Assembly: GCA_964479835.1 (NCBI GenBank)
Contig: CAYZRE010000001.1
Span: forward strand, 31,630 to 95,629
Direction: 5' to 3'
DNA from: an uncultured Candidatus Saccharibacteria bacterium
GTDB taxonomy: Bacteria; Patescibacteriota; Minisyncoccia; 2-02-FULL-40-12; GWA2-44-9
Length of the DNA: 64,000 nucleotides
The notes beneath the pieces were generated by a model, which searched no databases, was not told the DNA's origin, and saw nothing but the letters and a program-made list of their open reading frames with translations. The translations under genes were made by a program, and so were the position numbers. Of the stretch, positions 425 through 50,427 are shown piece by piece (within the stretch, counting starts at the first letter, position 1; each line of letters opens with the position of its first letter).

Positions 425-434
425 ATAAATTGTG

Positions 435-506
435 AGGCGCAAGGGGGAATCGAACCCCCGAATAAGGGTTTTGCAGACCCTCGCCTTACCACTTGGCTAT
501 TGCGCC
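435..506 (-). tRNA. tRNA-Cys(GCA)
   Basis: Minus strand: acceptor GGCGCAA/TTGCGCC, U73 discriminator typical of Cys. Anticodon loop CTGCAAA (GCA). T-arm GGGGGTTCGATTCCCCC. Confidence 0.75.
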
Positions 507-3077: not shown

Positions 3078-3104
3078 ATAATAACATATCTACCTTCAAT
3101 ACGG

Positions 3105-3191
3105 CGGAGAGGGTGAGATTCGAACTCACGGGGCTCTTGCGAGCCCGGCGGTTTAGTAAACCGCTGCTTTAGACCGCTCAGCCACCTCTCC
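3105..3191 (-). tRNA. class II (long variable arm) Ser-type tRNA with apparent anticodon ACU (loop TTACTAA)
   Basis: Minus strand, 87 nt. Acceptor GGAGAGG/CCTCTCC, G73 discriminator, 3-bp D-stem with long D-loop. Anticodon stem GCGGT/ACCGC, loop TTACTAA. 18-nt variable arm hairpin GGGCTC-GCAA-GAGCCC. T-arm GTGAG-TTCGAAT-CTCAC. Confidence 0.6.
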
Positions 3192-3193
3192 AG

Positions 3194-3372
3194 GGAATTG
3201 TAACGGAAGGATTCATCCTCCGGGTAAACGGCTCACAGTCTGAGCCGTTTACCTCCGGGCTCCGGCCCTCGTGGTATCGGCTACTGCCGATACATCACTC
3301 CGGGCTTCGAATCCTTCCGCGTATTCTACATGATACACAGACAGGTGCCACATGGCACCTGTCTGTGTATAT
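3194..3372. repeat. hairpin-rich spacer containing fragments of tRNA-Ser 3-prime ends in both orientations
   Basis: Copies of GGAAGGATTC / GAATCCTTCCG (matching the T-arm/acceptor of the adjacent tRNA-Ser) at 3202-3216 and, inverted, 3304-3319. Perfect hairpins at 3228-3258 (13-bp stem), 3280-3299 (8 bp) and 3336-3369 (15-bp stem, loop ACAT). Confidence 0.4.
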
Positions 3373-3462
3373 GCGGAGACGGAAGGATTCGAACCTTCGG
3401 TTCGGTTTGACCCGAACACCTCTTTAGCAAAGAGGCTCATTAGACCACTCTGACACGTCTCC
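3373..3462 (-). tRNA. tRNA-Ser(GCT)
   Basis: Minus strand, 90 nt. Acceptor GGAGACG/CGTCTCC, G73. Anticodon arm CCTCT-TTGCTAA-AGAGG. 20-nt variable arm, T-arm GAAGG-TTCGAAT-CCTTC. Confidence 0.8.
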
Positions 3463-15488: not shown

Positions 15489-15953
15489 ATGCACATTCCG
15501 GGGTGGCTTGAGTGGGTACTTCGCTGGGGCATGTGGCTTTTCAGGCCCAAATACCTCGCCGGGGTCTTTCCCGTCTGCCTCGACGACGCGGGGCGCGTGC
15601 TTCTCATCCGTAAGCGCCTGGGCGCGGCTATCGGTTGGCAGTTGCCCGGCGGCGCCAAAGAGTACGGGGTATCCCTTGAGCGGTCGGCGTGTCAGGAGCT
15701 TAAGGGCGAGACAGGGCTCACGACAGAGCCGGGTTGCCTTGTGCTCATGAGCGTCCACTGCGTCGAGGCGCATCGGGACCTGAACTTCGTCTATCTCGTG
15801 CGTTCGTGGGGCGGTGAGCTTGGACCTCGCGACACAACCGAGATTGCCGAAGCCCGTTGGGTTTCTGTCTCCGATGCGTACAAGATACTGTATCCGCCAC
15901 ATCTCCTCATGCTCATGGATGCCCTCGACCAGCGGTACCTATCGGGCCAGTAA
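15489..15953 (+). CDS. NUDIX hydrolase
   Basis: Nudix box GGAKEYGVSLERSACQELKGETGL. Confidence 0.6.
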   Translation: MHIPGWLEWVLRWGMWLFRPKYLAGVFPVCLDDAGRVLLIRKRLGAAIGWQLPGGAKEYGVSLERSACQELKGETGLTTEPGCLVLMSVHCVEAHRDLNFVYLVRSWGGELGPRDTTEIAEARWVSVSDAYKILYPPHLLMLMDALDQRYLSGQ

Positions 15954-15958
15954 TCCTG

Positions 15959-15990
15959 AAGAGCCTCGCGTGCGGGGCTCTGTTTTTATT
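15959..15990 (+). terminator. intrinsic terminator
   Basis: GAGCCTCG-CGTG-CGGGGCTC hairpin followed by TGTTTTTATT. Confidence 0.6.
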
Positions 15991-16018
15991 ATGTCAAAGA
16001 AATTGCTAGGATTGTGTA

Positions 16019-16095
16019 GGCGGTGTGGCGAAGGATAACGCACAGGGCCTGCAAACCCTGTATCGGTGGGTTGAAATTCCCACCCGCTGCCTCCA
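16019..16095 (+). ncRNA. tRNA-like element (Cys-GCA-like, 8-nt anticodon and T loops, encoded CCA); possible unusual tRNA or tRNA pseudogene
   Basis: Folds as acceptor GGCGGTG/CGCTGCC (two G-U pairs), D-arm GCG-AAGGATAA-CGC. Anticodon arm CAGGG-CCTGCAAA-CCCTG (one extra nt relative to CTGCAAA). T-arm GTGGG-TTGAAATT-CCCAC. Ends ...T-CCA. Followed by its own terminator. Confidence 0.35.
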
Positions 16096-16117
16096 ACCCG
16101 TTCTTTCTTCTGGTGAG

Positions 16118-16154
16118 TCTCCCTGAACGAATTCGTTCAGGGGACTATTTTTTT
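16118..16154 (+). terminator. intrinsic terminator after the tRNA-like element
   Basis: Perfect 9-bp stem CCCTGAACG/CGTTCAGGG (loop AATT) followed by GACTATTTTTTTG. Confidence 0.55.
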
Positions 16155-16181
16155 GCCGAAAACCGTGGTATTTTTGTGCAT

Positions 16182-16484
16182 ATGCTGACGGATACAGAGA
16201 TAGAACACATCGCGAAATTGGCGCGCATTGGGCTGTCGGGTGAGATGCACGCACACATGAAACATGACCTGTCCAAGGTCCTCGATTATATTGCGCTGCT
16301 GGAGAAGGCTGACACTGCGGGAGTCGAGCCGTTGTACCAGGTGACCGGTTTGCAGAATCAGACCCGTCCTGACGAGCGACGGGGCGATTTTGTTATGGAT
16401 GCGAAATTGATGGAATATCTGATCGGGCAAGCTCCGCATTCGCAGGAGCGGTTCGTAAAAGTAAAATCGGTGAAAGCAAAATGA
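16182..16484 (+). CDS. gatC: Asp-tRNA(Asn)/Glu-tRNA(Gln) amidotransferase subunit C
   Basis: About 100 aa, [19 protein letters not shown]... typical of GatC. Internal start of ORF 16023..16484. Stop overlaps the gatA start (ATGA). Confidence 0.75.
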
Positions 16485-17890
16485 CAGACACAGGCTACAC
16501 CATAGCATCAGCGCGCGAGGCATTCGCTTCGGGGAATCTGACGCCCGAGCGCCTCTTCGAACACTATCGGGGGCGCGTCGGCGAGCGCAACGAGGAGCTT
16601 AATGCGTTTCGTAATACTGATTTTTCGTTTGTGCAACGCGAGCTCGACACCTCGGTTCTCACGGGGATTCCGTATGCTCTGAAAGACAACATGCTCGTTG
16701 CGGGCACCGTCGCAACCGGCGGTTCTCGAATTTTGGAGCATTATGTCTCGGCGTACGATTCCACTGTCTTTACCAAACTCGATACTGCAGGTGCGCAATT
16801 GTTGGGAAAAACAAACATGGATGAATTTGCGATGGGAAGTTCGGGGGAGAACAGCGCCTATGGCGTTGTCCGCAATCCGTGCGACACGACTCGGGTGCCT
16901 GGCGGCAGTTCGGCCGGTTCCGCGGCCGCGGTGGCCGGTGACCTGTGTGTTTTTGCGCTTGGCTCTGACACTGGCGGTTCTATCAGGCAGCCCGCCGCGA
17001 TGTGCGGCGTTGTCGGTCTCAAGCCCACCTATGGGCGCGTTTCGCGCCACGGCCTGATGGCCATGGCTTCTTCGCTGGACCAGATCGGCCCCCTGACAAA
17101 AACAGTCCGCGACAGCGCACTGGTGTTGAGCGCTATCGCAGGACATGATGTGTTTGATTCCACGACTGTGCCGCGCGATGTTCCGGACTATATTGAGACA
17201 CTTGAACAGGACATTACCGGATTACGCGTCGGCGTGCTTGCCGAGCATTTCGGAGAGGGTTTGGCACCGGAGGTCAAAGAGCGTGTGGAAGAGGCAATCG
17301 CGATATTGAAAAAACGCGGAGCAGTTATCACGCCTATTTCGCTTCCGCACAGCGCGTATGCATTGGCGGTCTACTATATCGTTCAGCCCTGTGAAGTTTC
17401 GGCGAATTTGTCGCGGTATGACGGCATCCGCTACGGATATTACGCGCGTACTGCGGAAAATCTGTTGGAGGTATACACGAAAAGTCGCGCACAGGGACTG
17501 GGCGCCGAATCCCTACGGCGCATTATGCTGGGCACCTACGCGTTATCGGCAGGTTACTTTGATGCGTACTATCTCAAAGCACAGAAAGTCCGTGCACTCA
17601 TCCGGCAGGACTTCGACCGTGCATTCGAGAAGGTGGATATTATTGCCGGCCCCACGACGCCTACCGTTGCCTTCACGATAGGGGAGAAATCAGACGACCC
17701 ACTAGCCATGTACCTCTCCGACATCTACACGGTGCCGGTGAACCTTGCAGGCGTGCCCGCAATTTCTGTGCCCTGCGGAGTCGGTGCACAGTCTGGCCTG
17801 CCGGTCGGCCTGCAACTCATCGGTGATATGTTTCAAGAAGCGACGATATTGCGCGCGGCGTGGCATGTCGAGCAAGGACTTCAACGATAG
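16481..17890 (+). CDS. gatA: Asp-tRNA(Asn)/Glu-tRNA(Gln) amidotransferase subunit A
   Basis: Amidase signature GGSSGGSAAAVA. 469 aa. Confidence 0.9.
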
Positions 17891-18499
17891 ATGATGTTCT
17901 ACGAAAATATTCCCACAATTGTCAACTCAACAGTGCAGGCGCTCTACCAGGGCGTGTATAGGCCCTGGGATATACTGTCTCCCGCGCGACTGTTTGATTT
18001 TGTACAGACAAACAACCAGGTTGCCAGTATCAAGGTGCTTCTGTCGCAGGTCTCACTGGTGCTGTCTGCGGTGTTTACGCTGTTTATTGTCTTTGTCATG
18101 ATGCAAAAGCGTGTGCTCAAGGCGCAACAGGAACCGACGACAACCACATCGTCCGCACGAGGCACCACAGAAGTGCCGGCCGGCATCCTGCGCAACCGAT
18201 GGAACGAGCTTTGTAAACATTTGGAGTCTACGCACGAAGCCCAATGGAAGATGGCAGTCATCGAAGCGGACAAACTGGTTGATGATGCGCTGGTAAAATC
18301 GGGATTCCCGGGGGATACTTTCGGCGACCGTTTGAGCAATATCCAGCCGGGTACATTACTATCGCTGGATGGTATTTGGTGGGCGCACAAGGTACGCAAT
18401 CGACTTGCGCACGAGGTCGACTATTTTTTGCGGTATACCGAAGCACGTCAGGCTATCGGATACTTCGAGGCCGCGCTCTCTGAACTAAAACTTATTTGA
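17891..18499 (+). CDS. hypothetical membrane protein (202 aa)
   Basis: One TM (VSLVLSAVFTLFIVFVMM), Thr-rich linker, C-terminal helical domain. Confidence 0.4.
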   Translation: MMFYENIPTIVNSTVQALYQGVYRPWDILSPARLFDFVQTNNQVASIKVLLSQVSLVLSAVFTLFIVFVMMQKRVLKAQQEPTTTTSSARGTTEVPAGILRNRWNELCKHLESTHEAQWKMAVIEADKLVDDALVKSGFPGDTFGDRLSNIQPGTLLSLDGIWWAHKVRNRLAHEVDYFLRYTEARQAIGYFEAALSELKLI

Positions 18500-20334: not shown

Positions 20335-23300
20335 ATGTCCGATTTCAAGGAGCTTGAAGAGCGCATGCTCGCATTCTGGGAAGACAACGATGTCTTCCGA
20401 AAAAGCATGCATCAACACGAAGGACGGAAGCCATTCGTGTTCTTCGAGGGGCCGCCGACAGCCAACGGAAATCCCGGCATCCATCATGTCATCGCGCGCG
20501 TCTTCAAAGACCTCATCAGTCGCTACAAAACAATGCGCGGACACTTTGTATTGCGCAAAGGCGGATGGGATACCCATGGACTACCCGTTGAAATACAAGT
20601 CGAGAAAGAATTGGGATTCAAGAGCAAGAAAGATATCGAAGCGTACGGCATCGCCGCCTATAATGCCAAGTGTCGTCAGTCTGTATGGAAATTCAAGGAA
20701 GAGTGGGAGCGCTTCACGCGCCGCATTGGATACTGGGTAGACCTCCAGAATCCGTATGTGACCTATGAGAATCCGTACATCGAATCGCTCTGGAACATCA
20801 TCGGCCGCATCTGGGACAAGAAGCTACTCTATCAGGCGCACCGTGTCGTTCCATTCTGCACTCGCTGCGGTACGCCGTTGTCCAGTCATGAAGTCGCACA
20901 GGGCTATAAAACGGTCACGGACAATTCGGTGTATCTGAAGTTCAAAGTGAAGAGTTCCAAGCTCAAGCTTCCCAAGAATTCGTTCATTCTGGCATGGACC
21001 ACAACGCCGTGGACATTACCGGGCAACGTCGCACTCGCGGTTGGTCGCGACATCAACTATGTCCTCGCCACATCAAGCGGAGGAGACGAGCATTATATTA
21101 TTGCTGCTGACCTGGCCAATAAAGTACTGGGTGCGCCGCTTGCTATCGAACGCCAGTTCACGGGCCGTGAACTCATCGGCACTTCCTACCAGCCGTTATT
21201 TGCCGTCAAAGCTCTCAAAAAACCGAAGTCATACAAAGTGTATGAGGCCGATTTTGTTTCAACTACTGATGGCACGGGTGTCGTACACACAGCGGTTATG
21301 TACGGTGAGGACGATTATCAGCTGGGCACGAAGCTCGGACTAGTGAAACAGCACACCGTTGATGAACAGGGGAAATTCTTCGGTGTATCGAAAGAGTTGG
21401 ACGGAGCATATGTCAAAGCCGTGAGTACAGAAGCCATTATTCTGGATAAACTGAAAGCTGATAACGCATTACTCACGACTGCTCCCTTCGAGCATGAGTA
21501 TCCGTTTTGCTGGCGTTGTGATACTCCGCTGTTGTATTACGCGAAGGACAGCTGGTTCATCCGCATGAGCGCAATCAATGCTCAACTGCTTGCAAATAAC
21601 GATACGATTAACTGGGTTCCGGAACATCTCAAAGACGGGCGTTTCGGCCAGTGGCTTCGCGAAGGAAAGGATTGGGCGTTTTCTCGTGAGCGCTACTGGG
21701 GTACACCGCTTCCCATTTGGCAGGCCCGCGACAAGAAAGGCAAGGGGACCGGGCAGTGTCTGGTCGCTCACTCAATGGAAGACCTCGACACCTATCGCGG
21801 CGATAAGCCGGCTCACTTCTGGGTGATGCGCCACGGTGAAGCGCGCAAAAATGTGGACCATATCATCGACCAGGGCGAACTTGAGTCGCCGCTGACTGAT
21901 GTCGGCAGAGAGCAGGTAATCAGCGCGGCGCGGGCGCTCAAAAAACAATTATCTTCCGCGCGCACGAAATTGACCGCCGTCATCTCATCACCGATTCAGC
22001 GAACACTGGAGACGGCCGAGATTGCAGCGCAGGAGTTGGGCATAAAGACCATCGTTACCGATGAACGATTGCGCGAAATTAAACTCGGTCCGACACTGGC
22101 CGGATGTCATGACGGTAAGTACCACGAGCTCTACCCGACCTACGAGTCCAAGTTCACCCAGCAGCCGCCCGGGGGTGAGTCACTCGCCGATTTGAGGACC
22201 CGCATGTGGCAGATGCTTACGGAGCTGAACACGAAGTACTCCGGCAAAGATGTTTTGCTGGTCAGCCACGAATATCCCATCTGGATGATGACGGATGCAG
22301 CAAACGCGTGGAACAGGGAGCAGTCCATTACCGAGAAACAGAAACGCGGGAATGATTTTATCGGGTTTGCGTCCGTCGAGCAGCTGGTTGTGCGCAATCT
22401 ACCGCGCGACCCCGCAGGTATGCTGGACCTACACCGACCGTTCATCGACGATATTGTTCTGAAGTATCCCGATAGTTCTGCCAAGCTATATCGCGTGCCG
22501 GAAATTGCCGATGTGTGGTTCGATTCCGGTGCTATGCCCTATGCGCAGTGGCACTGGCCATTTGAGAATGAAAAAGTTTTCCAACAGCAGTTCCCGGCCG
22601 ATTTCATCTCCGAGGCCATCGATCAAACCCGCGGATGGTTCTACACGCTGTTGGCGGTCTCTACATTATTAGGTGACGGTGCACCGTACAAAAATGTACT
22701 GTCTCTGGGGCACATCTTAGATGAGAAGGGTCAGAAGATGTCAAAATCGAAAGGCAATATCGTCATGCCTGACGATGTATTCAGCGCGGTCGGCATTGAC
22801 GCAACGCGTTGGTATTTTTATACGGTAAATGCGCCGGGCGATACAAAGAATTTCTCCATGAAGGAGGTGCGCGAGCGTTTGACCGGTTTTATGATGACAC
22901 TCAACAACTGTCTGCGTTTCTATGAACTGTACCGAGCACAGCACGATACGATTCATCCGGAATTTTCCTCGGAGTCTTCTTCGAACTTGCTGGACAAGTG
23001 GATTGTGTCGCGACTGCGCGAGGTTACCGTGCTGGCGACTGCGCGACTGGACACCTACGATATTACCGTGGCTGCCCGCGAGCTGGAGCGATTCGTCGTA
23101 GACGATTTTAGTCAGTGGTGGCTTCGTCGCAGTCGCAAGCGCAGCGATGCTCTGCCGTTGCTGAGGCATATCCTGCGCTCGTTATCACTACTTCTCGCCC
23201 CGTTTATTCCGTACACAGCCGAGGAGCTGTGGCAGAAGCTCAAGTCGGAAGGGGACCCTCTCTCGGTACACCTTGCCGATTGGCCCGCCACCGGCGACAA

Positions 23301-23811
23301 GACGGCGATTGATGTGCAACTACACCAACAGATGATGCAGGTACGCGAGTACATCAGTGCCGGACTTGCGGCACGCAAAGAAAATCAGATTAAAGTCCGC
23401 CAACCTCTGCAATCAGTGACCGTCCCGGGCAAAAAATTGCACAATGACTTGGAAGATCTTATCCGTGATGAACTCAATGTGAAAGAAGTGAAATATGAAC
23501 CCGGTGCCGCAATTATGCTCGATGTGCACATTGGTACGCAATTGCGCGCGGAAGGATTCGCGCGTGAAGTGATGCGTACCGTGCAGGATATGCGCAAGGA
23601 ATTAGGCTGTCAGGTGACCGACCGCGTGTACTGCCAATGGTTTAGTGAGGATGCAGAAGTCAGCGCTGCGCTTCTTCAGCACGGCGACATGATTGCCCGC
23701 GAGACGGGCCTGTCGGCATTCGTGCATCAGGCCGACGATAAGACGCTTACCATTGAGAAAAACTTCGAGCTTGCTCTCGGTAAAGCTCTTTGGATTGGTA
23801 TCCGAAAATAA
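20335..23811 (+). CDS. ileS: isoleucyl-tRNA synthetase with embedded histidine-phosphatase (PGM-like) domain
   Basis: HIGH variant PPTANGNPGIHHV, KMSKS (KMSKSKGN), WCxRC, GTPLPIW, DVWFDSG. About 250-aa insert carrying RHGE...SPLT...VSHE histidine-phosphatase motifs between GTPLPIW and DVWFDSG. Confidence 0.9.
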   Translation: MSDFKELEERMLAFWEDNDVFRKSMHQHEGRKPFVFFEGPPTANGNPGIHHVIARVFKDLISRYKTMRGHFVLRKGGWDTHGLPVEIQVEKELGFKSKKDIEAYGIAAYNAKCRQSVWKFKEEWERFTRRIGYWVDLQNPYVTYENPYIESLWNIIGRIWDKKLLYQAHRVVPFCTRCGTPLSSHEVAQGYKTVTDNSVYLKFKVKSSKLKLPKNSFILAWTTTPWTLPGNVALAVGRDINYVLATSSGGDEHYIIAADLANKVLGAPLAIERQFTGRELIGTSYQPLFAVKALKKPKSYKVYEADFVSTTDGTGVVHTAVMYGEDDYQLGTKLGLVKQHTVDEQGKFFGVSKELDGAYVKAVSTEAIILDKLKADNALLTTAPFEHEYPFCWRCDTPLLYYAKDSWFIRMSAINAQLLANNDTINWVPEHLKDGRFGQWLREGKDWAFSRERYWGTPLPIWQARDKKGKGTGQCLVAHSMEDLDTYRGDKPAHFWVMRHGEARKNVDHIIDQGELESPLTDVGREQVISAARALKKQLSSARTKLTAVISSPIQRTLETAEIAAQELGIKTIVTDERLREIKLGPTLAGCHDGKYHELYPTYESKFTQQPPGGESLADLRTRMWQMLTELNTKYSGKDVLLVSHEYPIWMMTDAANAWNREQSITEKQKRGNDFIGFASVEQLVVRNLPRDPAGMLDLHRPFIDDIVLKYPDSSAKLYRVPEIADVWFDSGAMPYAQWHWPFENEKVFQQQFPADFISEAIDQTRGWFYTLLAVSTLLGDGAPYKNVLSLGHILDEKGQKMSKSKGNIVMPDDVFSAVGIDATRWYFYTVNAPGDTKNFSMKEVRERLTGFMMTLNNCLRFYELYRAQHDTIHPEFSSESSSNLLDKWIVSRLREVTVLATARLDTYDITVAARELERFVVDDFSQWWLRRSRKRSDALPLLRHILRSLSLLLAPFIPYTAEELWQKLKSEGDPLSVHLADWPATGDKTAIDVQLHQQMMQVREYISAGLAARKENQIKVRQPLQSVTVPGKKLHNDLEDLIRDELNVKEVKYEPGAAIMLDVHIGTQLRAEGFAREVMRTVQDMRKELGCQVTDRVYCQWFSEDAEVSAALLQHGDMIARETGLSAFVHQADDKTLTIEKNFELALGKALWIGIRK

Positions 23812-31620: not shown

Positions 31621-31694
31621 GCGGGCGTAGCTCAGCTGGTTAGAGCGTCCCCCTGTCACGGGGAAGGTCACCGGTTCGAATCCGGCCGCCCGCG
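31621..31694 (+). tRNA. tRNA-Asp(GTC)
   Basis: Acceptor GCGGGCG/CGCCCGC, G73. D-arm GCTCAGCTGGTTAGAGC. Anticodon arm TCCCC-CTGTCAC-GGGGA. T-loop GGTTCGAATCC. Promoter-like TTGCAT-17-TATACT upstream. Confidence 0.85.
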
Positions 31695-31699
31695 CAGAT

Positions 31700-31745: not shown

Positions 31746-32126
31746 ATGCGCATCAAGCCTTCATTGGTAACAGGTGCAGCCACAATCGTGGCGCTCGCGG
31801 CCGTGGGCGTCGTGGTATTGGCGACCGAGCCGTCACAGGATCAGCAGGAACTGATAATGCTGTTGTGGGCCGCATTGTTTCTGACGATGTGGGGTTTTAT
31901 GTGCACACTCCTTTTATTGATGCGGCAAACGATTGCACAGGCTCTGTGGACTGCGCTACCACCGGCGGTAGCGGCCGTTGGCCTGCTGGCAGCACTCCAT
32001 CGCGGAGTGCTGGGACAACGATTGCTTGAGGGTATTATTTTGACTACAGTGGTGCTATCCTCCGTTATCCGGTGGAAGCTTCGCCGGGAAAAAGCGCATA
32101 CAGGGCACACTTCAGAAAATCAATGA
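31746..32126 (+). CDS. hypothetical membrane protein
   Basis: Three to four TM helices. Start chosen at the second Met of ORF 31728..32126. Confidence 0.4.
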   Translation: MRIKPSLVTGAATIVALAAVGVVVLATEPSQDQQELIMLLWAALFLTMWGFMCTLLLLMRQTIAQALWTALPPAVAAVGLLAALHRGVLGQRLLEGIILTTVVLSSVIRWKLRREKAHTGHTSENQ

Positions 32127-33259
32127 ACATCACCATAGAGACGCCGGAAGCATTAGCGATTCGCAAACATCTGGAAGCGAGACACGACGCAGTCAGCGAG
32201 CGGCTGAAGCGCTTTTTAGCACTGCCAGACCTGTCACGCACCCCGGGAAGCCCCATCAATGAGCTAGCCGAACGGATTACTTCTATCCCGGACTTTAAAG
32301 ACTTTGATATCGTTGATGTCCCGGAAATCGTGCCTGCGGACAAAAGCTTCGACCTCTTTGATTTTGCTGCCGACCATCCGGCCCGCAGTCCGTCTGATAC
32401 CTATTATGTCGACGGCAATACTATCCTGCGTACGCACACGACGATCTCGTGGTATTACTACCTGACATCGGACCGGGCAAAAGAAAAGATTAAGAATCAT
32501 GAGCCGCTCGGCGTCTTCACCTACGGAAAGGTATACCGCAAAGACGAGATCGATCGGAATCACATGAATATCTTCCATCAGATGGACGGCTATTACCTGA
32601 TGCCGAAAGACAAAGGCATCGTGAGCGTTGATGACCTGAAGGATGTCCTCACAAAAATAGCGCAGGCGGTATTCGGACCGGATGTGAAGTATCGCTTCAA
32701 TGCGGATAATTTTCCGTATACTGATCCGAGTTTAGAGATGGAGATCGATAAAGGCGGAAAGTGGGTTGAAGTGCTGGGAAGCGGCATGGTGAAGGGGAGT
32801 GTACTGGAAAAACTGGGCATTGATTCGTCTCGCTACACAGGTTGGGCGTTCGGATTCGGCCTTGAGCGTTTGGCAATTATCAGCATGGAGCTACCTGATA
32901 TCCGGTTGCTGTGGTCCCATGACCCGCGCGTGTTGAAGCAGTTGAAGCTCGGAAGCAAATTCAAAGAAGTGAGTAAATTCCCGCCGATTACACGAGATAT
33001 TTCTTTTATCGTGCCGAAAGATTTTACGCCGAATAATTACTTTGACCTCATCCGTGATCTTGGCGGCCAGCTGGTCGAGGAAGTCACTCTCTTAGATCAT
33101 TACGACAATGACGATAAGTTCGGGTCGGACAATACCAGCTATACCTACCGCATCGTCTACCGCTCCAACGAGCGCACGCTTGCCACGGCTGAAATCGATC
33201 CGATTCAGGCGAAAATCACCCAAGAGACTATCTCCCAGTTTGGCGCGCAGGTCCGATAG
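32123..33259 (+). CDS. pheS: phenylalanyl-tRNA synthetase alpha-type catalytic subunit fused to a C-terminal FDX-ACB anticodon-binding domain
   Basis: Class II motifs (DHPARSPSDTYY..LRTHTT, FHQMDG, GWAFGFGLERLAI) plus a C-terminal FPPITRDISFIVPKD...YRSNERTLATAE FDX-ACB signature. No pheT downstream. Confidence 0.8.
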   Translation: MNITIETPEALAIRKHLEARHDAVSERLKRFLALPDLSRTPGSPINELAERITSIPDFKDFDIVDVPEIVPADKSFDLFDFAADHPARSPSDTYYVDGNTILRTHTTISWYYYLTSDRAKEKIKNHEPLGVFTYGKVYRKDEIDRNHMNIFHQMDGYYLMPKDKGIVSVDDLKDVLTKIAQAVFGPDVKYRFNADNFPYTDPSLEMEIDKGGKWVEVLGSGMVKGSVLEKLGIDSSRYTGWAFGFGLERLAIISMELPDIRLLWSHDPRVLKQLKLGSKFKEVSKFPPITRDISFIVPKDFTPNNYFDLIRDLGGQLVEEVTLLDHYDNDDKFGSDNTSYTYRIVYRSNERTLATAEIDPIQAKITQETISQFGAQVR

Positions 33260-37723: not shown

Positions 37724-39220
37724 ATGACGGAATATCTCACGACAATCGGGCTCGAAGTACATGCGGAGCTGAACACGAAAACAAAGATGTTCTGCGACTG
37801 CGCCAACGACCCATTGGAGAAATCTCCCAACCTGAACATCTGTCCCATCTGTATGGGCCATCCCGGAACGCTCCCGGTTATCAATCGCGGCGCCGTCATG
37901 CGACTCATTGCGGCCGGTTTGGCGCTGGGGTGCAGTATCGAAAAACACTCATTCTTCGAGCGCAAGAATTATTTCTATCCCGACCTCCCCAAGGGCTATC
38001 AGATATCCCAGTTTCAGGTCCCATTTTGTCGGGAGGGCTCGTTGACCGTCAACGGAAAAAAAATTCGCATCGAGCGTATCCATCTGGAAGAGGATGCCGG
38101 AAAGCTGATACATGAGTCGGCAGGTGATGTAACGCTTGCCGATTACAACCGCGCCGGTGTTCCGCTCATGGAGTTGGTCACCCATCCCGACCTTACGCAA
38201 GCCGAAGAGGTGCGCCGGTTTGCCCAAGAGCTTCAACTCATTCTGCGTTACTTGCATGTGTCCGATGCTGACATGGAGAAAGGTCAGATGCGGGTTGAGG
38301 TTAATTTATCCCTACGGCCCAAAGGACAAAAAGAATATGGCACTAAAGTAGAGGTCAAAAATATCAATTCAATTTCTTCCGCCGCAAAGTCGGCCGATTA
38401 TGAAATAAAGAGACAGAGGGAGGTGCTTGAATCGGGCGGGACGCTCGTGCAGGAGACGCGAGGATGGGATGATGTGCATGACAAGACCGTGAGCCAACGA
38501 ATCAAAGAGGGGAGCGCCGACTACCGGTACTTCCCCGAACCCGACCTCCCGCCCATCGTATTTACCGATGAGGAGATAGAAGCCATCCGCGCATCGCTTC
38601 CGGAGCTTCCGGCGGCCCGTCGGGCGCGGTTTGGTCGCGAGTATGGCCTGCCCGAAGGCGATGTGGAAATTTTGACGGTGTTCAAAGAGTTGGGTGATTA
38701 TTTTGAAGAGGTTGTCTCGGAGTTGAAGGCAGAAGACGATCCCATTACGGGCGAGGCATTGAATGGTCTCGCTACGCGAGATCTCGCGAAGCGAGACAAA
38801 CTTTCAAAAGTAGCTGCCAACTGGCTTATCACGCAACTACAGCCGAAGCTCAATGCCGTCTCGGCAGTCCCCCAGGACACAAAAATTACTCCTGCGCTGT
38901 TCGCTGACTTTATCGTCCGTGTGGCGTCAGGACAGATTGGCAGTACCGCCGCACAAGTTGTATTGCAGGCGATGTGGGAGACGGGGGAAGACCCCGAAGA
39001 CATTATTAAATCAAAAGATCTCGCGCAGGTGTCGGATTCCGTATCGATGAATAGCTTTGTTGAGGACGCTATCGCCCAGAGCGAAAAAATCGTTGCCGAC
39101 TTCAAGAGCGGCAAGGAGCCGGCCCTCAAGGCGCTTGTCGGCAAGGTGATGGTGCTCTCCAAAGGCAAGGCGGACCCGCAGGTGGCCGAGCAGATGTTAC
39201 GGGATAAGCTGAGCTCGTAG
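37724..39220 (+). CDS. gatB: Asp-tRNA(Asn)/Glu-tRNA(Gln) amidotransferase subunit B
   Basis: MTEYLTTIGLEVHAELNTKTKMFCDC. 498 aa with the GatB/YqeY C-terminus. Confidence 0.9.
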   Translation: MTEYLTTIGLEVHAELNTKTKMFCDCANDPLEKSPNLNICPICMGHPGTLPVINRGAVMRLIAAGLALGCSIEKHSFFERKNYFYPDLPKGYQISQFQVPFCREGSLTVNGKKIRIERIHLEEDAGKLIHESAGDVTLADYNRAGVPLMELVTHPDLTQAEEVRRFAQELQLILRYLHVSDADMEKGQMRVEVNLSLRPKGQKEYGTKVEVKNINSISSAAKSADYEIKRQREVLESGGTLVQETRGWDDVHDKTVSQRIKEGSADYRYFPEPDLPPIVFTDEEIEAIRASLPELPAARRARFGREYGLPEGDVEILTVFKELGDYFEEVVSELKAEDDPITGEALNGLATRDLAKRDKLSKVAANWLITQLQPKLNAVSAVPQDTKITPALFADFIVRVASGQIGSTAAQVVLQAMWETGEDPEDIIKSKDLAQVSDSVSMNSFVEDAIAQSEKIVADFKSGKEPALKALVGKVMVLSKGKADPQVAEQMLRDKLSS

Positions 39221-50245: not shown

Positions 50246-50345
50246 TGCGTCTCCTTTATGGATGCTCCTGGCACTTCTCCGACTGGTGAACTACGCTATC
50301 TTTAATTATATCACGGATAACTGTAATAAGCAAGCTTCTCTTTTG

Positions 50346-50427
50346 TGCCCGGGGTGGGAGTTGAACCCACAAGCCTTGCGGCACACGATTTTGAGTCGTG
50401 CGTGTATGCCAATTCCACCACCCGGGC
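50346..50427 (-). tRNA. tRNA-Leu(CAA)
   Basis: Minus strand. Acceptor GCCCGGG/CCCGGGC, A73. Anticodon arm CACGA-CTCAAAA-TCGTG. Long variable arm. T-loop GGTTCAACTCC. Confidence 0.8.

Follow-up and report, generated by a model that had tools for sequence, protein, structure and literature searches.

A 77-nt gene for a tRNA-Cys-like RNA lies directly upstream of gatC in a stretch of 64,000 nt from an uncultured Candidatus Saccharibacteria bacterium (contig CAYZRE010000001.1, positions 31,630 to 95,629). This whole stretch was analysed and is called the window below. The element is very probably a functional and independent RNA gene, and we also think it likely that it is all of the following at once: such a gene, not a leader of gatC and not a pseudogene. 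Judged from its sequence, the best explanation would be a divergent paralogue of tRNA-Cys, restricted to one narrow group within the Patescibacteria (Paceibacteria/Parcubacteria type). We filed the family with the non-canonical tRNAs and tRNA-like small RNAs, as a previously undescribed variant.

Structure and covariation of the RNA

The element reads GGCGGUG UG GCG AAGGAUAA CGC A CAGGG CCUGCAAA CCCUG UAUC GGUGGG UUGAAAUU CCCACC CGCUGCC U CCA. Its minimum free energy (MFE) structure is a complete cloverleaf of -33.7 kcal/mol, and 79% of the ensemble is in the cloverleaf. It is congruent with the preliminary description of this DNA, which had proposed a 77-nt cloverleaf-like fold with a Cys-like loop, a T-arm and an encoded CCA. 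The anticodon loop and the T loop of 8 nt each, which were noticed at that time, are both present in the fold, and the variable region is 3-4 nt. The 1-nt bulge which had been placed before the 3' strand of the acceptor stem is better read as a sixth pair of the T stem, and this pair covaries in the family (G-C in 11 sequences, A-U in one). The element has a four-arm cloverleaf with a 7-bp acceptor stem that is backed by covariation, and it departs from the set of canonical tRNA features, that is, a 7-nt anticodon loop with U33, a 5-bp T stem and a 7-nt T-psi-C loop. Its folding energy was modestly unusual (z = -2.46), and 3 of 200 shuffled sequences were equally stable. We regard the element as beyond chance because it is conserved with compensatory changes in relatives, rather than for its folding energy alone.

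The relatives were gathered from the DNA around GatC homologues and from a metagenome scan with a GatC alignment. These homologues were 57-97% identical with GatC of the window, and all of them belonged to Patescibacteria where they were named (Yanofskybacteria, Paceibacterota, "Patescibacteria group"). The element was found upstream of gatC in 11 distinct lineages including the window, with GatC 70-97% identical to that of the window: the window itself, L081/L082, L083-88, L090-92, L093 (identical to L185), L186, L096, L097, L173, L175 and L179. The gene on the 5' side of the element varies by lineage and encodes a Nudix protein, a secreted protein of ~150 aa, LigA or VWA. A covariance model built from ten members recovered all of the lineages with 48-90 bits. 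The same model found no element in more than 60 gatC loci with GatC identity of 61% or lower, and most Paceibacteria-type gatC loci are without it. GatA was also tried as a probe for close relatives and was given up, as it is too conserved and its matches were spread over many phyla; neither a tRNA nor a family member was present upstream in 80 GatA loci of many phyla with 48-60% identity. GatC and GatA of the window had no exact match in the records. A scan of viral contigs with a pattern of the anticodon arm gave three chance matches, none of them with a cloverleaf.

Among the 12 distinct sequences of the family, 98.0% of the stem cells form standard pairs. Both partners had changed in 14 of 21 pairs, each of the four stems shows compensation, and none of 500 shuffles matched the observed pairing or compensation; the set of ten sequences behaved similarly. 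When the 3' partners were slid by 1-3 columns, the pairing fell to 39-59%. For example, GGCGGUG/CGCUGCC forms the acceptor stem of the window, with GGUGGUG/CACCACC in its place in L173 and GACGGCG/CGCCGUC in L083; for the T stem, the window has GGUGGG/CCCACC and L173 has ACUGGU/ACCAGU.

These changes bear on the possibility that the element is a tRNA-Cys gene in decay, a pseudogene preserved only through chance or linkage, which we consider hardly credible. It is true that the element scores under the tRNA thresholds, carries indels in the anticodon and T loops, and was lost in two close relatives, and that degraded-looking copies with deletions and without CCA exist, solely on the low-coverage contigs L085 and L089. 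Against this, compensatory changes are present in all four stems, U73 and CCA are invariant, the position of the promoter and the terminator are conserved, and the element persists down to 70% GatC identity in small, streamlined genomes. The preliminary description had named an intact canonical tRNA at this place in relatives as the sign of a simple pseudogene. With ARAGORN and Rfam no such tRNA was found at the site, and 0 of 10 relatives reached E <= 1 against the Rfam tRNA model. Thus, where that description left the choice between a decaying tRNA gene and a tRNA-like RNA, the second half stands, and decay is contradicted by the compensatory pairing and by the lack of a canonical copy in relatives.

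Relation to tRNA-Cys

ARAGORN at default settings and Rfam at gathering thresholds reported six ordinary tRNAs in the window and did not report the element. The Rfam tRNA model (RF00005) matched the element in a local search of 351 nt with 26.1 bits (E = 0.002), below the cut-off of 29 bits, and ARAGORN picked it up solely at -ps80 with the label 'tRNA-?(Ala|Cys)'.

The covariance model of the family, searched over the window, gave the element with 89.3 bits, and the sole other match was the canonical tRNA-Cys with 51.1 bits. The two RNAs have in common G1-G2-C3-G4, U73, G34/A36/A37 and the A-U, G-C, G-C core of the anticodon stem, and 43 of 77 aligned columns are identical. The GCA anticodon of the canonical tRNA is also carried by most members of the element family. 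They differ in the anticodon loop, which is 8 nt in the element with an extra base 5' of C32, in the T stem of 6 bp with a T loop of 8 nt lacking UUC, and in the shorter D loop of the element. Moreover, the element encodes CCA while the canonical gene runs on as UCAC, its promoter is placed for +1, and it is missed by standard tRNA finders.

Promoter, ends and terminators

A TAnnnT box, usually with a TGn extension, is located 6-7 nt before G1 in 10 of the 11 lineages, compared with 1.7% of random positions in the same loci. The hexamers in the lineages are TAGGAT, TAAGCT, TAGTAT, TATAAT, TAGAAT, TATGCT, TAGCAT, TATACT and TACAAT. Because they differ between lineages, it is the position and not the sequence that is conserved. 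In the window the box is TGCTAGGAT, and the predicted transcription start is probably G16019, the first base of the acceptor stem. Transcription starting at the mature 5' end means that no cut by RNase P would be needed.

The CCA is encoded in all 12 family members and in none of the six canonical tRNA genes of the window. In those genes (340-506, 3103-3462, 31621-31695 and 50345-50427) the discriminator is followed by C and then by a non-C base, so the ordinary tRNAs of this genome would rely on the CCA-adding enzyme. Their -10-like boxes are ~3 to 22 nt upstream.

The hairpin and T7 terminator that the preliminary description had put at 16118-16154 proved right, and its stem has 10 pairs. 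A hairpin with a T run was located within ~45 nt 3' of the element in 8 of the 11 lineages. Elsewhere the terminator comes after a longer trailer (L097), after an open reading frame (ORF) of 62 aa (L173) or after a second tRNA-like gene (L175). The motif GTTCTTTC is present in the 3' trailers of three lineages (window, L175, L179) and absent from the others. A further terminator follows the upstream Nudix gene, so the element is separated from the transcription of that gene.

With these ends in view, a tRNA-shaped signal acting in cis, such as a processing site for RNase P/RNase Z (likened to the t-elements of plant mitochondria), a transcription insulator or an integrase attachment site, could hardly explain the element, and we would give such a signal next to no weight. 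The interval between ligA and gatC is variable and prone to insertion, and tRNA genes are common targets of integration, which would be matched with such a role. However, the predicted start at G1 leaves RNase P nothing to cut, the Nudix gene is already insulated by its own terminator, and the invariant U73-CCA and anticodon-loop bases would be superfluous for roles of this kind. The integration-site idea was dropped, as the 3' half of the element has no second copy within the 64-kb window.

The gatC gene and its neighbourhood

Of 64 Paceibacteria-type loci, 29 have a TGnTAnnnT box 6-10 nt 5' of the gatC start, among them every one of the 13 closest, in comparison with 0.9% of random positions. 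A Shine-Dalgarno-like motif before gatC was seen in 1 of the 64. In the window the box is TGGTATTTT; the gatC ATG (16182) lies 28 nt past the T run and has no Shine-Dalgarno sequence, in agreement with the earlier remark that no ribosome binding site (RBS) is obvious. From this arrangement, the gatC mRNA is probably leaderless and transcribed from its own promoter, and the missing RBS would be accounted for by leaderless transcription from this -10 box. Leaderless starts of this kind, just behind an extended -10 box, may be widespread in the group.

The preliminary description had also raised the idea of a tRNA-mimic regulator or leader of gatCA. Such an RNA would monitor the state of the tRNAs or be a ligand of GatCAB or of a synthetase, and would control gatC via the downstream hairpin. 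The element stands upstream of gatC in all 11 lineages while its other flank changes, the second tRNA-like gene of L175, which has a truncated anticodon loop, is also placed before gatC, and the T tract of the terminator abuts the gatC promoter. All three would fit with this idea. Nevertheless we judge it very improbable. The element has its own -10 box and terminator, gatC seems to have a separate promoter and a probable leaderless start, and DNA intervenes between the two in L173 (62-aa ORF), L175 (second tRNA) and L097 (~250 nt). Among the Rfam matches at E <= 10 there was no T-box or other leader, apart from a chance match of 14 bits on the opposite strand. In addition, gatC loci with GatC identity of 61% or lower, and two closer ones, are without the element. 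GatCAB reads the pair U1-A72. The first pair of the element is instead G1-C72 (G-U in 2 of 12 sequences). Complementarity of the anticodon loop to gatC is kept in only 2 of the 11 lineages; this 7-nt match, at the GGTTTGCAG codons, was considered as an antisense contact and set aside as chance.

Another candidate reading, in which the ORF 16023-16484 (+) gives GatC an N-terminal extension, was rejected as an artefact because of the lengths of the homologues and the stem-compensatory substitutions: most of the 120 listed GatC homologues are ~100 aa and four are 136-154 aa. These four entries (P0005, P0010, P0019 and P0046) are called at 136-154 aa and hide the RNA gene beneath the coding annotation. 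The family would be missing from annotations because standard tRNA finders are blind to it and because it is sometimes swallowed in such an over-long GatC call.

The ligA-gatC arrangement is found in more distant relatives. Most simply, the adjacency of the element and gatC is inherited synteny, the element and other small genes having been inserted between ligA and gatC.

Several further features were seen in this neighbourhood. A Nudix hydrolase with a hydrophobic N-terminus stands directly 5' of the RNA gene, with only a spacer between, in the window, L081 and L097. A role like that of RppH on 5'-triphosphate RNA is conceivable for it. In L175, a 152-aa secreted protein is encoded between Nudix and the RNA gene, and a signal-peptide protein of ~150 aa without Pfam match takes the upstream slot in L175, L179, L093/L185 and L186. 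The second odd tRNA-like gene, between the Cys-like element and gatC, is found in the L175 lineage only (L175 1870-1940, identical in L176-L178). It has a normal T arm and 46 bits against the Rfam tRNA model, no -10 box of its own and no CCA; its D arm resembles tRNA-Glu/Gln by eye, its anticodon stem closes a loop of 4-6 nt, and ARAGORN called it 'tRNA-???' with anticodon 'ga'. A conserved protein of ~200 aa without Pfam or NCBIfam match (17891-18499, +) follows gatA on the 3' side in all related loci.

Table 1. Coordinates of the tRNA-Cys-like RNA gene, its parts and its neighbours in the window
Feature	Position	Strand	Basis or remark
tRNA-Cys-like RNA gene, 77 nt	16019-16095	+	Fold, detection, covariation, own covariance model
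Acceptor stem, 7 bp	16019-16025 with 16085-16091	+	MFE fold
D arm, 3-bp stem	16028-16041	+	MFE fold
Anticodon stem	16043-16047 with 16056-16060	+	MFE fold
Anticodon loop, 8 nt, CCUGCAAA	16048-16055	+	MFE fold
T stem, 6 bp	16065-16070 with 16079-16084	+	MFE fold
T loop, 8 nt, UUGAAAUU	16071-16078	+	MFE fold
U73	16092	+	
Encoded CCA	16093-16095	+	
Extended -10 box of RNA gene, TGCTAGGAT	16004-16012	+	Hexamer TAGGAT 16007-16012; 6-nt spacer to G16019
3' trailer with GTTCTTTC (16100-16107)	16096-16119	+	Sequence comparison
Terminator of RNA gene	16120-16154	+	10-pair hairpin 16120-16143, ACTA, T7 16148-16154
Nudix hydrolase, upstream neighbour	15489-15953		Pfam
Terminator of upstream Nudix gene	15960-15987	+	9-pair stem 15960-15981, then GTTTTT
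Extended -10 box of gatC, TGGTATTTT	16166-16174	+	Hexamer 16169-16174, 7 nt before ATG
gatC, 100 aa	16182-16484	+	Pfam GatC; neighbour, outside RNA gene
gatA	16481-17890		3' of gatC
gatB	37724-39220	+	Outside operon, 20 kb away
Canonical tRNA-Cys	434-506	-	Default tRNA search; family-model match

Constant and variable parts of the family

The invariant bases in the 12 sequences are G1, G4, G5, U73, C74-C75-A76, the A-U, G-C, G-C core of the anticodon stem, G34 and A36. C32 and A37 are retained in at least 90% of the sequences, and the acceptor stem is 7 bp in all members. The other parts vary. Nine lineages have an anticodon loop of 8 nt, L093 and L186 have one of 7 nt (YUGCAAC), and in L083, L090, L173 and L175 the first and last bases of the loop can pair, which leaves 6 nt. 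Position 33 is U or G, with G in three lineages. Position 35 is C (GCA) in 8 of 12 sequences including the window, where the loop is enlarged. The T arm goes from 6 bp with an 8-nt loop through 5 bp with 6 nt and 4 bp with 7 nt to 4 bp with 13 nt, and the standard UUCRA loop was never found.

Cysteine identity depends mainly on U73 and GCA, and in minihelices U73 is sufficient for it (PMC9976931). We infer that the constant parts of the family are those read by a synthetase, namely the 7-bp acceptor helix, U73, CCA, G34, A36 and A37, and that the drifting parts are those needed by the ribosome, EF-Tu, RNase P and the CCA-adding enzyme. Four features appear altered or drifting: the anticodon loop of 7 nt with its U33, the T stem of 5 bp, the T-psi-C loop, and the elbow between the D and T arms.

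One may ask whether the RNA is nonetheless a working, odd translational tRNA: a minor tRNA-Cys isoacceptor or a frameshift or missense suppressor, which would read four bases through its 8-nt loop or, in the variants with the anticodon GAA, place Cys at Phe codons. The full cloverleaf, U73, CCA and the GCA in 8 of 12 sequences are matched with this, as is the normal 7-nt loop of L093 and L186. Natural tRNAs with an 8-nt anticodon loop or a non-standard elbow also exist, such as yeast mitochondrial tRNA-Thr(UAG) and tRNA-Pyl (PMC7609411). We still regard it as improbable, since a canonical tRNA-Cys is already present in the window, U33 is changed to G in three lineages, the loop is closable to 6 nt in four, and the T arm, which has no UUC motif, varies between 6 bp with a loop of 8 nt and 4 bp with a loop of 13 nt. 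Furthermore, all other tRNAs of the window are canonical, so the translation apparatus does not look adapted to deviant tRNAs.

A possible function of the RNA

We put forward tentatively that the RNA is charged and non-ribosomal; this is possible, and we hold it with less than even confidence. Aminoacylation with a role off the ribosome is suggested because the parts read by the synthetase are fixed and the parts used by the ribosome and EF-Tu drift. With transcription starting at G1 and the CCA encoded, the RNA would be ready without a step by RNase P or the CCA-adding enzyme. A synthetase would charge it, probably with cysteine, and the charged RNA would serve off the ribosome, as a carrier of the aminoacyl group, a charge sensor or a decoy, and not in codon decoding or in the control of gatCA.

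Several observations weigh against our explanation of the element as a whole. The anticodon is GAA, that of Phe, with A at position 35 in 4 of 12 sequences (L081, L082, L096 and L179), and these variants should weaken recognition by CysRS. The normal 7-nt YUGCAAC loop of L093 and L186 means that some members might still decode. The covariance model found no element in L095 (GatC 81% identical) or in L181-184 (74%), so it is dispensable in these close relatives. The Pfam-annotated genes of the window include no Fem/MurM, MprF, cyclodipeptide synthase, LanB/PEARL-type enzyme or second CysRS, and are housekeeping only. The covariation counts come from 12 sequences of 11 related lineages and do not equal independent events, although a signal is present in every helix. 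Finally, the closest-paralogue comparison took in Cys and Asp, the only tRNAs of the window with a short variable arm.

A more specific version of the charged, non-ribosomal reading is unlikely, and we mention it as a speculation. The RNA would be a new, dedicated class of non-ribosomal acceptor RNA, charged by way of U73 largely regardless of the anticodon, and would donate or sense an aminoacyl group. The reshaped anticodon loop and elbow would exclude it from the ribosome. Its partner might be a synthetase blind to the anticodon, for example SepRS without an anticodon-binding domain, which was reported in some Parcubacteria (PMC5424206, PMC8762117). Alternatively, there might be a functional tie to the GatCAB neighbourhood, where L175 has the second tRNA-like gene.

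Comparison with known systems

tRNA-Other of B. cereus is an extra tRNA paralogue in which the synthetase determinants are kept and the T arm and loop are altered, and it is a poor partner for EF-Tu and the ribosome. The extra tRNA-Gly paralogues of S. aureus, which are non-proteinogenic and serve the peptidoglycan bridges, likewise keep the synthetase determinants with altered T arms and loops, and escape EF-Tu through the changes in the T arm (PMC9976931). Such non-proteinogenic tRNAs could be the closest analogy for the mechanism, while tRNA-Cys is the closest by sequence. The known ones have 7-nt anticodon loops, normal dimensions and known partner enzymes or phenotypes, whereas no partner of the element is encoded nearby. 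The T arm and loop of the element, as read from sequence, are non-standard and variable.

Randau et al. (2008) reportedly described leaderless tRNA genes in Nanoarchaeum equitans, whose transcripts begin at the mature 5' end and have no need of RNase P. The promoter of our element is similarly placed for a start at the mature 5' end. However, the entire tRNA set of N. equitans is leaderless and RNase P is absent, while here it is this gene only, and the leaders of the canonical genes vary.

The selC* tRNA-Cys and allo-tRNAs (Mukai et al. 2017, reviewed in PMC7609411) are also minor, deviant tRNAs of cysteine identity (U73, sometimes non-GCA) which exist beside a canonical tRNA-Cys. Their acceptor/T arrangement is 8/4 or 9/3 with long variable arms, whereas the element has 7/6 (7/4-5 in relatives), a short variable region and an enlarged anticodon loop. 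It thus lacks the 8- or 9-bp acceptor, the short T stem and the long variable arm that together mark tRNA-Sec, selC* and allo-tRNAs. The yeast mitochondrial tRNA-Thr(UAG) shares with the element an 8-nt anticodon loop in a cloverleaf-shaped RNA (PMC7609411), but it decodes on a co-evolved mitochondrial ribosome and its anticodon is fixed, while in the element family the loop size (7, 8 or effectively 6 nt) and positions 33 and 35 vary among close relatives. In the literature on tRNA-like RNAs or unusual tRNA-Cys in Patescibacteria or Parcubacteria, no description of this RNA family was found. The group I introns in tRNAs of Patescibacteria (PMC13011429) and the SepRS systems concern canonical tRNAs.

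Other observations in the window

A protein resembling the monomeric, mitochondrial-type PheRS is encoded at 32072-33259 (+), with a class II core and a C-terminal FDX-ACB domain. Among solved structures, those of human mitochondrial PheRS are its best relatives (E = 1e-55). It does not reach the NCBIfam cut-offs for 'pheS_mito' and 'PheS-related mystery ligase SrmL', and no pheT is adjacent. Its start is probably near 32123, because the database homologues have 378 aa; the NCBI label is 'hypothetical protein'. Prompted by the GAA variants, we considered this gene as a dedicated partner of the RNA and rejected it. The protein is ~70% identical across many Paceibacteria groups, and since this distribution far exceeds that of the RNA family, the gene should be a housekeeping one.

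A tRNA-Ser with the anticodon ACU (A34) is located at 3103-3191 (-), near a normal tRNA-Ser(GCU) at 3373-3462, and both have 56-57 bits. Bacterial tRNAs other than tRNA-Arg(ACG) rarely have A34, as far as we know. The IleRS of 1158 aa (20335-23811, +) has a His_Phos_1 domain inserted at residues 496-661, which splits the two halves of the catalytic domain.

Implications

The leaderless gatC, and probably many other leaderless genes of the group, matters for the calling of genes and start codons. As Patescibacteria have tiny genomes and are host-dependent, an extra structured RNA that is under selection is probably useful to them. If the RNA is charged and yet stays off the ribosome, it would add a new bacterial case of a tRNA with a task outside translation, and also a natural tRNA gene that can do without RNase P and the CCA-adding enzyme.

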